The notes under the pieces were generated by a model. That model saw only the letters and a program-made list of their open reading frames with translations, had not been told where the DNA came from and made no database searches. The translations under genes and the position numbers were made by a program. From the IMG/VR virus record IMGVR_UViG_3300005611_000181, positions 1-25,183 of that record: a stretch of 25,183 nucleotides of DNA, one strand, 5' to 3'. Within the stretch, counting starts at the first letter, position 1. Each line of letters starts with the position of its first letter. This document shows, piece after piece, positions 12,548 through 20,719 of the stretch. The DNA is from a virus. Lineage: Duplodnaviria > Caudoviricetes.

Positions 12548-12584
12548 ATTCATTTTTTACTCCTCTCGTTTTACCTCACAACTT

Positions 12585-12616
12585 GCCGCGGTATGCTCGA
12601 TTACCGCGGCTTTTTT
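12585..12616 (+). terminator. Intrinsic terminator of the replication operon
   Basis: Stem GCCGCGGTA/TACCGCGGC with an 8-nt loop, followed by T6. Confidence 0.85.
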
Positions 12617-12617
12617 C

Positions 12618-12672: not shown

Positions 12673-12816
12673 ATGAATACCGAAAAATGGAAGAGTGTGT
12701 TGGTTCCGATAGAGGTATATCGCGAAATAAAGCACATGGCAAAGTCAGAAGGCCGCACGATTAGCGGGCAATTACGAGTAATGTTCGAGATATACAAAAA
12801 ATCGGTTGACGCGTAG
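12673..12816 (+). CDS. Ribbon-helix-helix (Arc/CopG-like) regulator, 47 aa
   Basis: MNTEKWKSVLVPIEVYREIKHMAKSEGRTISGQLRVMF fits strand-helix-GRT-helix. RBS AAGGA precedes ATG 12673. Confidence 0.75.
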   Translation: MNTEKWKSVLVPIEVYREIKHMAKSEGRTISGQLRVMFEIYKKSVDA

Positions 12817-12840
12817 TATATTATCGCATATATAAAAGAC

Positions 12841-12887
12841 ACCTCATGAATGAACTAAAGCCTCGGACTTCGGTCTGGGGCTTTTTT
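12841..12887 (+). ncRNA. Putative ~47-nt small RNA with anti-SD 5' seed
   Basis: Promoter TTGACG 12806-N17-TATATA 12829 is followed almost at once by a terminator. The predicted 5' end reads ACCUCAUGAAUGAAC. Confidence 0.55.
12860..12887 (+). terminator. Intrinsic terminator with cUUCGg tetraloop
   Basis: GCCTCGGAC-TTCG-GTCTGGGGC followed by T6. Confidence 0.85.
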
Positions 12888-12900
12888 CTTACCTATGTAC

Positions 12901-12929
12901 TTGACAAAGTCCCATACATTGGCTAGATA
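12901..12929 (+). promoter_or_regulatory. Promoter of the small-gene operon with operator heptamer
   Basis: TTGACA-N17-TAGATA, with TCCCATA at 12910 in the spacer. Confidence 0.7.
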
Positions 12930-12959
12930 TCAAAAACGTTTTAATTTTATGAGGGTAAA

Positions 12960-13160
12960 ATGCCACAATACGAAATCATCCGCCATTACGAAAAATGCGA
13001 CGTACACGTCGTTAACGCCAAAAGCGAAGCTGAAGCCCGTTGGCGCGTCCTGAACCGCGGCGCAGGGTTCAAAAACTCTTTCGACAGCGAAGACACGCTG
13101 ATCGAAGTCAAAGTCGTCAACCCCGAGTTCGAAGAGGAGTTGAACGACGATGGACAATAA
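12960..13160 (+). CDS. Hypothetical protein
   Basis: RBS TGAGGG; first ORF after the 12901 promoter. Confidence 0.75.
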   Translation: MPQYEIIRHYEKCDVHVVNAKSEAEARWRVLNRGAGFKNSFDSEDTLIEVKVVNPEFEEELNDDGQ

Positions 13161-13299
13161 TACGTTGCTTATACAATCGTTGGAATACTGGGCGAAGCTG
13201 TTTCGTGAGGGGCTTTTGTCTGACGAATTTGCGCAAGATATTGCGCACGTTCTTGAGGACAAGGCTCACGACCTGAGATTGGAGCAAGAAGATGCCTAA
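13150..13299 (+). CDS. Hypothetical protein, 49 aa (absent from ORF track)
   Basis: RBS GAGGAG at 13134; MDNNTLLIQSLEYWAKLFREG...LEQEDA*. Confidence 0.65.
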   Translation: MDNNTLLIQSLEYWAKLFREGLLSDEFAQDIAHVLEDKAHDLRLEQEDA

Positions 13300-13432
13300 A
13301 GCACCCTTTAATAATAAGTGGTCCACGCTGACCACCGAAGAGTTGGATCGCATCTTGGACAGTGTTTTCTGGGATGTATTCTGGAAGAAGCGTTTAAATG
13401 TTCCCGAGAAATCTAAGGAAGTTACGCAATGA
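13292..13432 (+). CDS. Hypothetical protein, 46 aa (absent from ORF track)
   Basis: GGAG upstream; MPKAPFNNKWSTLTTEELDRILD...EVTQ*; ATGA overlap with the next gene. Confidence 0.65.
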   Translation: MPKAPFNNKWSTLTTEELDRILDSVFWDVFWKKRLNVPEKSKEVTQ

Positions 13433-13617
13433 CGAACCTTATGAAGTTAGCCCTGAAACGCGGTGCAATAGACGCCTACTACGGGCATTCTGGCAACCCC
13501 CGCATTGTAGACGCCTTAGGCAACACAATTGTACTCAAGACCGAAATGTCTAAAGACGAAATTAAAGCCTACTGGGAAGGCTATGACAGCCAAATCGATA
13601 GAAAGGAGTGGGAATAA
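13429..13617 (+). CDS. Hypothetical protein
   Basis: Coupled ORF with AAGGA RBS; contains RGAIDAYYG and AYWEGY. Confidence 0.7.
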   Translation: MTNLMKLALKRGAIDAYYGHSGNPRIVDALGNTIVLKTEMSKDEIKAYWEGYDSQIDRKEWE

Positions 13618-13790
13618 TGGATGAAGATGTACCCGTCTATGAATGCAAAAGAAAAGGCGATCAATTCATTTTCTTTTGCCCAAAGTGCGAAAAAACGCAT
13701 TACCACGCCCCAGAGGAAGGTCACCGTCTTGCGCACTGTGTCAACGATAACCATCACCCCGATGGTTATTATTTGTTGGAGAAGAAGTGA
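13617..13790 (+). CDS. Small Cys/His-rich putative zinc-binding protein
   Basis: CPKC..THYH....HRLAHC; RBS AAGGAG; TAATG overlap. Confidence 0.7.
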   Translation: MDEDVPVYECKRKGDQFIFFCPKCEKTHYHAPEEGHRLAHCVNDNHHPDGYYLLEKK

Positions 13791-14905
13791 TGAATAAGCG
13801 CAAGAAAATAAGAAGTCAAAGCGATGAGTTTGTTGAACCGCCGATGAGTTCTTTGGCAGACCGTCTGAATGCATCAGCCAACGGCATAGTCACAATGAGC
13901 GGACGTGGCCATGGACGTAAAACACACCACGGACGGGGGTCAAAGCGTAACGGACCACGGACCACGAAACGCGACATGCTTTACTTTGTCCGAGACTACG
14001 TCCGCGAGCTACGCGCCAACAATCCACGCTTGGAAGAAAACTGGCAGAACGCCATAGGTTGGGTGGACGGCAGGGATGTCGCTGATTTTCTAGTGAACGA
14101 GGTTCAGTATTTTGATTGCAGTGAAATCTGGGAATATGTTTGGCTTAACCTAGAAGAGATGTATCCCACAAACGATGTACCCCCTTCCCCTGATTGTATT
14201 CTACCCGCCGAAGCAGTTGGTTTATACCTAGACTACTGGGGAAAGTACTTAGACGAACCAAATGAAAACCAAAACATGTATCTTTGCATTCCCACCACAG
14301 AAGCGGAAGAACATGAAGAATTTAGATCACGTCACTACCGTGTTTTTTGTTTAGACCACCCCTACGAGCAGCCCGCACATGGCAAAGGACCGCAGCAAAT
14401 ACCAATGCCCCTTGGCGAAATAAGCGTAGTCGAGGGGATCGAACTGTTCGATGTCTATGATATCTCGCAGTACAAAGGGAACAGCAAAGCCCCACATGAT
14501 TGGATTGAGGAACAACAAGCTAATTTCGCAGCACACTTGCGTATCGTTGCCGCTTTGCTTGCGACAATCAATCAACCACGGTTCGTGGTTAGCGGAAAGC
14601 GAGACGTCAGCCTCGTCAAACGGCAGTCGTTCAAGAAAGCAACAGGACGCTTTACACCAGACAGTTGGAACATGGTGACATGGAACATCGAAGCACCCGT
14701 CAAATCTAAAGACTACAAAGAAGGCACAGGCGGCCGTCAGGCTCTACACTTTCGCCGTGGGTATTGGCGCAAATCCGAAAAGGATTGGGAACGATCCAGA
14801 TGGAGTGAAACACGTAAACGTTGGGAGCAGTATATTCACGGATACGAAGCAGGACATCCTGCGTTTGGGGTGAAAAAAAGCTACCACTTACCAAGGAAAG
14901 AATAG
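13787..14905 (+). CDS. Hypothetical phage protein with basic C-terminal HFRRGYWR motif
   Basis: A 372-aa ORF coupled to the upstream gene; no function recognised. Confidence 0.75.
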   Translation: MMNKRKKIRSQSDEFVEPPMSSLADRLNASANGIVTMSGRGHGRKTHHGRGSKRNGPRTTKRDMLYFVRDYVRELRANNPRLEENWQNAIGWVDGRDVADFLVNEVQYFDCSEIWEYVWLNLEEMYPTNDVPPSPDCILPAEAVGLYLDYWGKYLDEPNENQNMYLCIPTTEAEEHEEFRSRHYRVFCLDHPYEQPAHGKGPQQIPMPLGEISVVEGIELFDVYDISQYKGNSKAPHDWIEEQQANFAAHLRIVAALLATINQPRFVVSGKRDVSLVKRQSFKKATGRFTPDSWNMVTWNIEAPVKSKDYKEGTGGRQALHFRRGYWRKSEKDWERSRWSETRKRWEQYIHGYEAGHPAFGVKKSYHLPRKE

Positions 14906-14909
14906 TACA

Positions 14910-15101
14910 ATGATGGACGATAGGATTTGCATTTTCTATGTAGCCGACAGAGTGCAGGAAATCGTAGACGGCGACGCAACGCCAGAAGATTTCTTGAGCG
15001 AGTTGAACCACAACATAGGCGTGAACGCCAGATGGAAGCGCAACAACCCAGATGCGCTAACCGCGGACCTCCCGCCCATCGAGAAAAGAGGACGAAAATG
15101 A
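14910..15101 (+). CDS. Hypothetical protein
   Basis: Fills the gap in a tightly packed operon; ATGA overlap with the next ORF. Confidence 0.65.
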   Translation: MMDDRICIFYVADRVQEIVDGDATPEDFLSELNHNIGVNARWKRNNPDALTADLPPIEKRGRK

Positions 15102-15394
15102 ACGAGAAATTTTTAGAAGTGTACGTTTCAGATGAAGGCCTAACAGCAGAAGGCAAATTTAGAGCGGGAACCCACTTTCATTTCGACGACGACTTTCTCT
15201 GCAACCGTCTCGCAATCGATCAATACCAAATCGTTAAATCATGTATCAACATCCTAGAAGACGTCATGTATGAACTCGAAAAAGAGGTTAAAGCAGAAAA
15301 CGAATTCTTTAACGCTGAAGCCGAAAAAGCTATGAACAAACTATGGGACAAAATTAAAAAACCAAAAAAAATGAGCAAACGACATGGGGAATGA
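15098..15394 (+). CDS. Hypothetical protein
   Basis: ATG 15098 follows GAGGA and is preferred over the track start at 14927. Confidence 0.7.
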   Translation: MNEKFLEVYVSDEGLTAEGKFRAGTHFHFDDDFLCNRLAIDQYQIVKSCINILEDVMYELEKEVKAENEFFNAEAEKAMNKLWDKIKKPKKMSKRHGE

Positions 15395-15572
15395 AGCGCT
15401 CAACCCCGCCCAAAAGGCAGAATACCGTTTCCTCAAAAACGAAGTGGATAAATACGAACGAGAAGCAAACCGTGTCGATATGCATCCCAACGTACAACAC
15501 GACCTCTGGAGAGCGCGTATGGAGCTTAAACAGTTTGTTCGCGAACTACGGCAGCACGGAGTAAATATATGA
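15384..15572 (+). CDS. Hypothetical protein
   Basis: Overlaps its neighbours at both ends; helical amphipathic sequence. Confidence 0.7.
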   Translation: MGNEALNPAQKAEYRFLKNEVDKYEREANRVDMHPNVQHDLWRARMELKQFVRELRQHGVNI

Positions 15573-15748
15573 ACCACGACCCACGGCTCATCGATGTGGT
15601 GCGCGAGTTGACCGCTCGACAAAAAGAGTTCGACGATATCGTCTGGGACTACGGCGTTCACGACCCGCGGCTCGCGGCACTGGCCAACGAAATCCAACGC
15701 CTCAAAAAACTCGACGAAGACGGAATCTTAGTTGATCCTGTCTTTTAG
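15569..15748 (+). CDS. Hypothetical protein, 59 aa (absent from ORF track)
   Basis: RBS GGAG and ATGA overlap; MNHDPRLIDVVRELTARQKEFDD...VDPVF*, with HDPRL twice. Confidence 0.7.
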   Translation: MNHDPRLIDVVRELTARQKEFDDIVWDYGVHDPRLAALANEIQRLKKLDEDGILVDPVF

Positions 15749-15848: not shown

Positions 15849-15946
15849 TGAGGGTACAAACCCCACGCTTTTTGACAATCAAATACCTCGTCCGACTAGG
15901 GTCACCCCGATAATGTCACGTTCATTCTTTTTTATGAGGTATCACC

Positions 15947-16258
15947 ATGAGTGATTTTAAAAAAATTGACGGTAAAGTCGTCATCACAACTATCGACGAA
16001 CTCAACAAGTTCGAAGCTCAAAACTTTCCAGACGGTGTCAAAGCCAAACGTAAACGCGACTTCTTTAATGACGGCGCATACATCGGCTTTAACCTAAACC
16101 GCTTCGCATATACCGACCTGCTCGCCGCAGAGTGCCACGCACTACGCGACAGAATACTAGGGTATAGCGGCAGCAGCTACGGGTTCCCGTTCGAACCATA
16201 CGTCGAAACACACACCGACGATAACGGTGAACAGTGGTTCGAAGTCTATACAGGATAA
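15947..16258 (+). CDS. Hypothetical protein (monocistronic)
   Basis: RBS ATGAGGT; has its own upstream control region and a downstream terminator. Confidence 0.8.
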   Translation: MSDFKKIDGKVVITTIDELNKFEAQNFPDGVKAKRKRDFFNDGAYIGFNLNRFAYTDLLAAECHALRDRILGYSGSSYGFPFEPYVETHTDDNGEQWFEVYTG

Positions 16259-16264
16259 CACCAC

Positions 16265-16302
16265 GCCTCGTGTGCCGTCGATCACGGTTCACGGGGCTTT
16301 TT
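16265..16302 (+). terminator. Intrinsic terminator
   Basis: Outer stem GCCTCGTG/CACGGGGC, inner stem CCGT/ACGG, followed by a T-tract. Confidence 0.7.
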
Positions 16303-16327
16303 CTTTGTTTGGCGTTACGTTTCTATA

Positions 16328-16549
16328 TATATATAGCCAGAAAAATAAAAAAAATATTTTTGAAAAAAATACCCGTAACCCGTGTAACCGTGTAACCAGA
16401 GGCACTTTGGCCATATAAACAAGGGGTTTGAGGGGTTACGCCGTAGGTTACACCCTGCGAAAACAACGTGTAGCCCTAGACAGAAATCAGGATTTGCGTT
16501 AAATGTCTCTGAAGTTTTTTTTTTTTTTTTTTTTTTCTGGCTCTATATA
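16328..16549. repeat. Inverted-repeat-bounded iteron cluster (candidate origin or pac region)
   Basis: AT-rich inverted repeat 16328-16354 / 16523-16549. GTAACC at 16375, 16384 and 16392; GGTTAC at 16434 and 16446. Confidence 0.7.
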
Positions 16550-16600
16550 AGTAAAAGCGTTATTTCTTGTTATTATAGCCGAAAAGTTATGGGGCATGAC

Positions 16601-17750: not shown

Positions 17751-17787
17751 TTGCCATTTATATGGGATTAATCGCATATCATGAGGT
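17751..17787 (+). promoter_or_regulatory. Promoter with palindromic operator
   Basis: TTGCCA at 17751; TATGGGA-TTAA-TCGCATA 17761-17778; RBS ATGAGGT. Confidence 0.65.
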
Positions 17788-17794
17788 AAACGTT

Positions 17795-18499
17795 ATGCTT
17801 AAAACTGTAGAAATTTCACGCGCTAAAAAAACCAAAGGTATCGCTGTAACATATCGGGCGGGCACAAAGAACAAATACGGGACGTGCCCGATTGATTGCA
17901 AAATGAATTGCAGCGGGACGGGGACCAAATCAATTGATTGGGAATATTTCGACGCGTTATTGGACGCGGTGCCGAGTAAAGGGGTTTCTTTTACATATTC
18001 GCATTTTGATCCGAATGTTTTTGGATGGGGCAAAAAACTAAAAGAGGGGAAAACCGTTGTAAACTTTTCAACGGAAAGCGCGCTTGCTGCGACGGCGTCA
18101 ATTTACAACGGCGTTCCCTCTGTTCTGGTGGTCCCCGCGGAATTTTGGCACGGCCGCAAAACTGCCGCGCCGCACGGGAAAACGATTGTGCGCTGCCCTG
18201 CCGAATATCGCGATATATCTTGCGCCCAATGCGGGAACGGTGAGCCATTGTGCGCCCGCCTCAATCGCAATTTTATTGTTGGATTTACTGCGCATGGTCC
18301 CAGTAAACGCGCGGCCGCTGATCCAACTATTCGCGGCGGATGTTATGCGGATGCGGGCAATTGTCGTATTTGGTGGGATCAGACCGCCAACGCGTCGCAA
18401 GATGAAACCGACGGGGAAAAACTAAAACGGTTTGTTTCTGGTTTGCCGCCGCGTTCTATTGTGCGCCACCATGTTGCGGGCGATATTGGCGCGGAATAA
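17795..18499 (+). CDS. Cys-rich phage protein (GP88-like, possible metal/Fe-S binding)
   Basis: ATG 17795 follows the RBS. Motifs TCPIDCKMNC, FTYSH, RCPAE..CAQC..LC, GFTAHG, GGCYA and RHHVAGD. The family link is from recall and unverified. Confidence 0.6.
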   Translation: MLKTVEISRAKKTKGIAVTYRAGTKNKYGTCPIDCKMNCSGTGTKSIDWEYFDALLDAVPSKGVSFTYSHFDPNVFGWGKKLKEGKTVVNFSTESALAATASIYNGVPSVLVVPAEFWHGRKTAAPHGKTIVRCPAEYRDISCAQCGNGEPLCARLNRNFIVGFTAHGPSKRAAADPTIRGGCYADAGNCRIWWDQTANASQDETDGEKLKRFVSGLPPRSIVRHHVAGDIGAE

Positions 18500-18518: not shown

Positions 18519-18594
18519 TTGCATAATATGGGACAATATGAGATAAACGGGGCGGGGTAATCCTGCCCCTTTGCATTTATGAGGTAAAAACATG
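18519..18594 (+). repeat. Promoter-operator-hairpin-RBS cassette, copy 1
   Basis: TTGCAT; TATGGGA 18527 and TATGAGA 18537; GGGGCGGG-GTAAT-CCTGCCCC 18549-18569; ATTTATGAGGTAAAAACATG. Confidence 0.85.
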
Positions 18595-19724: not shown

Positions 19725-19799
19725 TTTACATATAAGACAATATGCGATTTAATAGGGGCGGGGCAATCCTGCCCCTTTTTATTTGTGAGGGACAAAATG
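19725..19799 (+). repeat. Promoter-operator-hairpin-RBS cassette, copy 2
   Basis: TTTACA; TATAAGA 19731 and TATGCGA 19741; GGGGCGGG-GCAAT-CCTGCCCC 19755-19775; TTTTTATTTGTGAGGGACAAAATG. Confidence 0.85.
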
Positions 19800-20653: not shown

Positions 20654-20719
20654 TAAGCGATAATATGCGATCAATTGGGCGGGGCAATCCCGCCCTTTTT
20701 ATTTGTGAGGTACAAAATG
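20646..20719 (+). repeat. Promoter-operator-hairpin-RBS cassette, copy 3
   Basis: TTGACT; TAAGCGA 20654 and TATGCGA 20664; GGGCGGG-GCAAT-CCCGCCC 20677-20695; TTTTTATTTGTGAGGTACAAAATG. Confidence 0.85.

Follow-up and report, generated by a model that had tools for sequence, protein, structure and literature searches.

What purpose could be served by a promoter that fires almost at once into a terminator, downstream of the DNA polymerase gene of a Caudoviricetes phage, when the first 15 nucleotides that it would transcribe resemble the reverse complement of ribosome-binding leaders up to 8 kb away? The DNA in question, hereafter the window, is a whole stretch of 25,183 nucleotides (IMG/VR record IMGVR_UViG_3300005611_000181) that encodes a lytic transglycosylase, an SNF2-type helicase, a primase, a UvrD-type helicase, DNA polymerase A and the small and large terminase subunits. 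The interval from polymerase to large terminase is filled with small ORFs without assigned function, organized in several promoter-led units. The window PolA is 48-54% identical to those of 023Pt_psg01, DSL-LC04, HTVC023P and HTVC027P and the gene order is similar; by both measures the phage appears related to the HTVC023P-type pelagiphages, a group described in the accessible part of PMC12753301 as the most abundant known. An earlier note, made from the letters alone, had proposed that this locus specifies a small RNA acting in trans on the first genes of several presumed early units. The element comprises the following features:

12806..12834, + strand: sigma-70-type promoter of the RNA (-35 TTGACG at 12806-12811, -10 TATATA at 12829-12834)
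12824-12830, + strand: TCGCATA box inside this promoter (box listing)
12841..12855, + strand: predicted single-stranded 5' seed ACCTCATGAATGAAC, made of the invariant ACCUCAU and the variable extension GAAUGAAC
12857..12887, + strand: intrinsic-terminator-like hairpin with a C(UUCG)G loop and a U run (hairpin 12857-12884, U run to 12887; terminator listing and fold)

The promoter and cUUCGg terminator described in the earlier note are thus both present, with a spacer of 17 nt between TTGACG and TATATA. A promoter consensus scan of the window did not list this promoter because its -10 lacks the T at position 6; alphaproteobacterial promoters commonly lack this final T. The predicted RNA is 45-47 nt long, and the 55 nt from 12838 are predicted to fold into the terminator hairpin alone, leaving the 5' part unpaired (-20.1 kcal/mol, z -5.2). 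The family seed consists of ACCUCAU followed by an A-rich tail, of which the window's GAAUGAAC is a local variant. Translation of a 26-codon ORF at 12846-12926 had been named as one finding that would overturn an RNA reading; that ORF runs through the terminator and is not conserved, its ATG occurring in 4 of 21 sequences that share the window's seed class. Rfam returned no match at E<=1 in the window, nor at the gathering score in 6 loci spanning six seed classes. Relatives appear in four metatranscriptome runs of one study as contigs only, with intergenic and coding DNA covered alike.

All six leader matches that the earlier note had listed (15920-15940, 18574, 17779, 20701, 19781 and 12946) were recovered, 4-8 nt before the ATG of ORFs of 66-373 codons, in these leaders:

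12946..12962, + strand: target leader 1, TTTATGAGG, before ORF 12960 (66 aa), head of the 12960-15748 cluster (duplex -12.3 kcal/mol, rank 6 of 30)
15892..15949, + strand: target leader 2, a CCGACTAGGG..TGTCA anchor and then GTTCATTC-T6-ATGAGGT, before ORF 15947 (103 aa; duplex -17.8 kcal/mol, rank 1)
17779..17797, + strand: target leader 3, TCATGAGGT, before the DUF7227 gene at 17795 (234 aa)
18549..18594, + strand: target leader 4, a GC hairpin and then CATTTATGAGGT, before the gene at 18592 (373 aa, phrog_1362, weak DUF932), match at 18574
19754..19799, + strand: target leader 5, a GC hairpin and then ATTTGTGAGG, before ORF 19797 (135 aa), match at 19781
20677..20719, + strand: target leader 6, a GC hairpin and then ATTTGTGAGGT, before ORF 20717 (84 aa), match at 20701

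Thirty gene starts of the window were ranked by the energy of their duplex with the first 20 nt of the RNA, two further starts being left out for wrong coordinates. The six leaders, which had initially been picked for their match to the RNA, take ranks 1 to 6, with a mean of -15.7 kcal/mol against -6.2 kcal/mol for the remaining starts. They therefore outscore other gene starts, as the earlier note had held that genuine targets should, and the predicted duplex covers the SD core in all six. Pairing is longest, and covaries, in leader 2, where the match at 15920-15940 includes six extra U. When RNA nucleotides 6-15 were shuffled with the ACCUC core kept, the observed sum was reached in 0 of 2000 trials. 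A generic anti-SD 12-mer showed no preference for the six leaders (p 0.17), and neither did the RNAs of seed classes B, C and D from related phages. Several leaders are predicted to fold locally over their own SD. Because all were picked for their match and those at 18574, 19781 and 20701 share a paralogous leader hairpin, the window alone does not amount to six independent cases, and it therefore fell to relatives to decide.

The three paralogous hairpins are GC hairpins with U tails (18549-18569, 19754-19776 and 20677-20695) that lie between promoter box and SD; in this position they resemble terminators that immediately follow the transcript start. The long leader of ORF 15947 holds a conserved TGACA..CCGACTAGGG..CCCGA..TGTCA element (15875-15920), which persists throughout class A although different genes follow it, together with a cis ACCTC at about 15885; it is possibly a structured leader.

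Relatives were collected by polymerase (80 loci) and by the product of a small gene directly upstream of the RNA element (at least 80 viral and at least 80 metagenomic loci):

12673..12816, + strand: gene for a 47-aa ribbon-helix-helix (RHH)-like protein (Pfam RHH_5, E 3e-5, 24.1 bits, under the 26-bit cut-off)

This RHH-like gene is present in at least 245 loci, which form at least 103 groups, at least 48 of which extend 5 kb or more downstream; no carrier was found among the cultured phage records searched. A promoter-plus-seed pattern scan returned at least 119 loci, and only those also holding the RHH gene were used. A scan with the exact 15-mer was set aside, as 5 of its 36 matches were the element in near-identical phages and the remainder lay in unrelated contexts. 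Among the matches listed, TTGAC stands exactly 35 nt before ACCTCAT in 21/21 distinct sequences of class A, the window's seed class. Their predicted RNAs measure 45-64 nt (20 of 21 could be delimited), the spacer and terminator vary, and the terminator stems are unlike one another. Indeed, an alignment of 8 loci leaves only the -35 (TTGAC), the TA of the -10, ACCTCAT and the 3' arm of the terminator invariant. At three loci (L263, L324 and L351) an ORF starts at TTTTCATG right after the RNA terminator with no free SD, and read-through of the RNA would there carry a gene.

Across lineages the seed itself is replaced. Besides the window's class, five others were distinguished: B (CTCCGTAG), C (TTCTCCAAA), D (CACCTTTG), E (TTCCTCCCTGTCC, which lies in the terminator loop) and F (TCCCGTAG). 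Promoter-seed-terminator units of these six classes occur, among the matches listed, in 43 of the 48 loci with at least 5 kb downstream; no unit was found in the other 5. The covariation between seed and leaders that the earlier note had proposed to check in related phages is indeed there, seed and leader motif switching together across the six classes. With motifs that were defined after part of the data had been seen, and a class F pattern that was widened, the own motif per 10 kb downstream amounts to 6.7 for A (RTGAGG), 6.2 for B (TAYGGAG), 5.5 for C (TTGGAGA), 4.2 for D (AAAGGTG), 2.6 for E and 5.3 for F, against 0-1.2 for foreign-class motifs. The own motif ranks strictly top in 38/43 loci (1/2 in class E, which is a weak class), and the upstream replication module has no leader motif denser than 1.1 per 10 kb. 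Class F was reached in the opposite direction: in 26 loci the RHH gene was not followed by an RNA, although many of these loci have TACGGGA leaders. An RNA was predicted from such leaders and subsequently turned up in 17 of the 26, at a distance of 0.6-2.1 kb downstream and flanked by promoter and terminator. Four more carry a one-letter variant of the seed and 5 yielded none. A first guide search with CTCCC[AG]TA had given no match, the actual seed being [TCA]TCCCGTAG.

Promoter-terminator units with still other seeds were noticed in L409, L387, L064 and L254 (GTTCTCCGCT, TTTCCCGACT, CTCTCCGTG and CTCCTTGTTG), which suggests that the classes number more than six. Several class B loci (L011, L023, L028, L039 and L042), and also L251, L309 and L339, have an RNA terminator loop that reads GGTTGCCCCC or similar and complements hairpins of the GGGCAAC type found at cassette-leader 5' ends. 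Sites of the latter type number 4-9 per 10 kb on the coding strand vs 2-4 on the reverse, and the loop offers a possible second contact with the leaders.

A test free of motif choice took leaders by protein homology in 39 loci. The leader of the 373-aa gene was obtained from 13 of them and pairs best with the RNA of its own class in 11; for the DUF7227 gene, 20 of 27 leaders do so and the other 7 do not favour their own class. The observed class matrix was the best of 6 permutations for the former gene and the best of 120 for the latter. On a polymerase tree of 86 rows (a quick IQ-TREE search, with class F not labelled), A, C, D and E each fall on one side of a starred branch, D is nested in B with starred support, and classes A-E need 4 changes; the independent class switches are therefore only about five.

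Within class A the covariation can be followed at finer grain. The leader at 15892-15947 has a class A orthologue marked by CCGACTAGGG, and 5' of its SD this leader tracks the variable RNA positions 8-20: GUUCAUUC partners GAAUGAAC in the window and CCAAAUCUUUUA partners UAAAAGAUUUGG in L324, with AAUCUUUU in L263 and AAAUUUU in L238 as further variants. Own pairing is the best of 40,320 assignments over 8 loci and the best of 120 over five loci from separate sub-branches; for the 8 leaders, the own RNA ranks first in 4 cases, second in 3 and fourth in 1. Several of these sites pair with bulges. Where the RNA has a U, the facing position in class A leaders is A 32 times, G 10, C 0 and T 3, and single leader changes in class B comprise 14 C-to-T opposite G vs 0 T-to-C opposite A. 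This dominance of G-U-compatible changes in classes A and B lends only modest support to RNA pairing because wobble changes are transitions; in class F, T-to-C opposite RNA A, which pairing does not favour, is seen in 19/64 leaders.

The locus therefore combines what characterizes trans-encoded sRNAs, namely a predicted promoter and intrinsic terminator of its own without a conserved ORF, a conserved seed predicted to be accessible, imperfect complementarity to distant mRNAs, and compensatory changes. As far as comparison of genomes can tell, a trans-acting anti-Shine-Dalgarno RNA family with a co-evolving target code is very probably real in these uncultured marine phages. For the window itself, 12841-12887 is probably a phage sRNA gene whose anti-SD 5' end blocks ribosome binding at accessory-cassette leaders in trans. 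Host sigma-70 RNA polymerase would make the 45-47 nt RNA, whose unpaired seed would meet the lineage-specific SD variant RUGAGG in leaders of the first accessory-cassette genes and form 9-15 base pairs across the SD in about six mRNAs. We infer that this pairing represses the targets, and accumulation of the RNA may lower translation of probably early, host-takeover-type genes. The early timing is suggested by analogy with HTVC027P, whose early genes are all of unknown function and whose temporal classes are interspersed, according to the available text of PMC12753301. With an SD variant of this private kind, the core genes of the phage and the majority of host genes would escape the RNA.

The neighbouring RHH-like gene may add a transcriptional layer. 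TCSCATA boxes occur 16 times in the window vs 5.6 expected (0/100 shuffles), and 13 of the 16 are intergenic, sitting at the large terminase promoter and at those that serve the target units, the RNA and the RHH gene. The RHH-like protein is a candidate binder of these boxes; its model gives weak fold matches to CopG, Arc, AmrZ and CdbA, none at E<=0.001, and the top Foldseek matches are mostly RHH at E about 1 or worse, with a monomer model that lacks the strand. As the RNA, RHH-gene and target promoters share the TCSCATA box, the protein (transcription) and the RNA (translation) could form a two-layer brake on one gene set. Both the box and the protein's N-terminal strand motif (KSVL) are nearly constant across classes with different seeds, so the protein is unlikely to read the SD variants.

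A second anti-SD tract lies upstream of the RHH gene:

12548..12617, + strand: 3' UTR and terminator of the DNA polymerase gene, with ACCTCAC at 12573

This ACCTCAC is a wobble-free match for the GTGAGG leaders at 19781 and 20701. The replication-operon 3' UTR has an anti-SD tract before its terminator in most relatives (L047, L347, L372, L068 and others), which reads CATGGTTTTCCTCCCT in class F, so that a 3'-derived second guide RNA is a possible product. As a second covarying guide, the 3' UTR gave the best of 24 class pairings but by under 1 kcal/mol, and was not accepted.

The joint switching of guide and target across classes is also what diversifying selection on specificity would produce. 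From that perspective, the same pairing might serve mainly to silence superinfecting phages of the same class, or to quiet a carrier state, with the classes as immunity groups. The C4 RNA of P1/P7 works in this manner, as described in the available portion of PMC5320573, and the window RNA has the RHH gene beside it. On the other hand, the 25-kb fragment shows no integrase, the text of PMC12753301 that was available calls the relative HTVC027P lytic, and eight genome matches contain no intact prophage, only one short remnant in a chromosome-sized contig; we regard this role as unlikely. The eight matches are assemblies of unrelated phyla, mostly small phage-like contigs, for which reason no host was assigned. 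The remnant itself (L410:9496-10130, the polymerase end and RHH start) belongs to a contig of 822 kb that carries the label Alphaproteobacteria; by eye it reads in frame with a glyoxalase-like ORF, and it is a hint as to the hosts of the phage family.

Pairing could instead stabilize or activate the mRNAs, or host mRNAs could be the main targets. The local folds predicted over the SD of several leaders would suit activation, yet the SD core itself lies under the duplex in all six, and in every class the phage leaders change with the seed, a pattern that would not be needed if only host mRNAs were targets; we find this improbable. Hardly to be favoured either is an explanation at the level of DNA, by which the leaders are recombination-homogenized repeats or protein sites and the element an inverted copy without RNA function. 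PeSL-type repeats of T4-like phages are known (accessible text of PMC4122927), three of the window leaders are paralogous repeats, and wobble-type changes are also the commonest transitions; however, the inverted match spans 7-19 nt, is bulged and leaves out the hairpin and box of the repeat, the element always stands between promoter and terminator at two different genome places, and the minus-strand ATG behind the motif is lost in relatives. Finally, a chance match to SD sequences by an anti-SD-like stretch that is in fact a leader or the 26-codon ORF can be dismissed as very improbable, common as ACCUC is as an anti-SD core, given the indifference of generic and foreign-class RNAs to the six leaders, the failure of every shuffle and an ORF that crosses the terminator and seldom keeps its ATG.

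A translational repressor acting in trans, the reading preferred here, has partial precedents. The C4 antisense RNA of P1/P7, as the accessible parts of PMC5320573 and PMC8198154 describe it, is about 77 nt long and processed by RNase P, folds into three stem-loops and regulates a temperate phage's icd-ant operon. Like the window RNA, it is a phage RNA acting in trans, one part occluding a ribosome-binding site and another giving specificity, and guide and target differ together between phages. Unlike C4, the window RNA is about 47 nt long, consists of a linear 5' seed and a terminator, and would address about six dispersed targets. Membership of the C4 family was rejected, since there is no Rfam match, one hairpin only in place of three stem-loops, and targets that are unknown ORFs, DUF7227 and phrog_1362 genes, not icd-ant. 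Sar of P22 is another small phage RNA that blocks translation initiation by pairing (available part of PMC12197685). The window RNA resembles it in that presumed action and in having an RHH-type regulator nearby. Sar, which is associated with the RHH repressors Arc/Mnt, has a single antisense target, the ant mRNA, and is encoded on the opposite strand. By contrast, the window RNA is 0.1-8 kb from its targets and pairs imperfectly; with the same strand, a separate locus and bulged pairing, it was not placed in the cis-antisense class of Sar and OOP. RsaE/RoxS, 6C and cuckoo/CcsR are chromosomal trans-acting sRNAs whose anti-SD seeds use a generic CCUCC or C-rich motif. They share the layout of seed plus terminator and multi-target pairing over the SD, whereas the window seed departs from the 16S tail and the matching private SD variant of its targets changes by lineage. 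By these comparisons the window RNA is like trans-acting anti-SD sRNAs and like C4 in its way of working, and outside both the C4 family and the cis-antisense RNAs.

Conserved motifs at phage gene starts have been described before. The Start Associated Sequences (SAS) of cluster K mycobacteriophages, as the available text of PMC3203893 has it, form a conserved, extended RBS motif that precedes non-structural genes and is accompanied in part by inverted-repeat operators; RNA or protein binding was suggested for it, and K1 genomes hold one reverse copy. The likeness to the present leaders lies in the conserved extended RBS motif at non-structural genes. The right half of Anaya has one reverse copy (L393:29871, record 59870), intergenic and after a hairpin, without the promoter geometry of the window RNA, and the right half of Pixie has none within two mismatches. 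The PeSL cassettes of T4-like phages are repeated units of promoter, hairpin and SD heading accessory genes, as here, with hairpins upstream of the promoter, while the three window hairpins lie between promoter box and SD; the accessible text of PMC4122927 contains neither 'antisense' nor 'small RNA' and mentions no trans-acting RNA.

A literature search covering open-access text and not subscription papers found no description of such an RNA system for this phage group, no paper joining 'HTVC023P' with 'small RNA', and none joining 'anti-Shine-Dalgarno' with phage, sRNA and early genes. The terms 'small RNA', 'sRNA' and 'promoter' are absent from the available part of PMC9599517, and six seed or loop strings were unmatched in 6 supplementary files of the viral structured-RNA catalogue PMC10690425, whose files 1, 2 and 4, outside that search, may hold these motifs. 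Most phage RNAs whose targets are known belong to temperate phages, where they regulate a single phage gene or genes of the host (accessible part of PMC12197685). In the cultured relatives HTVC023P and DSL-LC04, no promoter-seed-terminator unit was recognized in leaders read by eye.

If true, the system would amount to an RNA regulon that spans the phage, with compensatory evolution on the scale of the genome, and would give exact, testable targets for otherwise unannotated genes. It also provides a discovery route, which worked for class F: once the private leader motif of a genome is known, its reverse complement can be sought between promoter and terminator. The classes would supply natural orthogonal RNA-leader pairs of 45-65 nt. 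More tentatively, a lineage-private SD and one guide RNA might constitute an addressable translation code that new genes join via their leader, with the classes as RNA immunity groups against superinfecting kin; this possible extension could explain start-associated motifs in other phages.

Two further stretches were noticed. Between ORF 15947 and the small terminase gene, window positions 16260-16590 combine long A/T runs, GTAACC/GGTTAC repeats and a low in GC skew, and are origin-like or packaging-site-like in sequence. In four SAR-like low-GC relatives (L067, L071, L074 and L076), the polymerase and RHH genes are separated by a conserved insert of 400 nt that shows no obvious gene, has a promoter and a terminator of its own, and possibly specifies a larger non-coding RNA.
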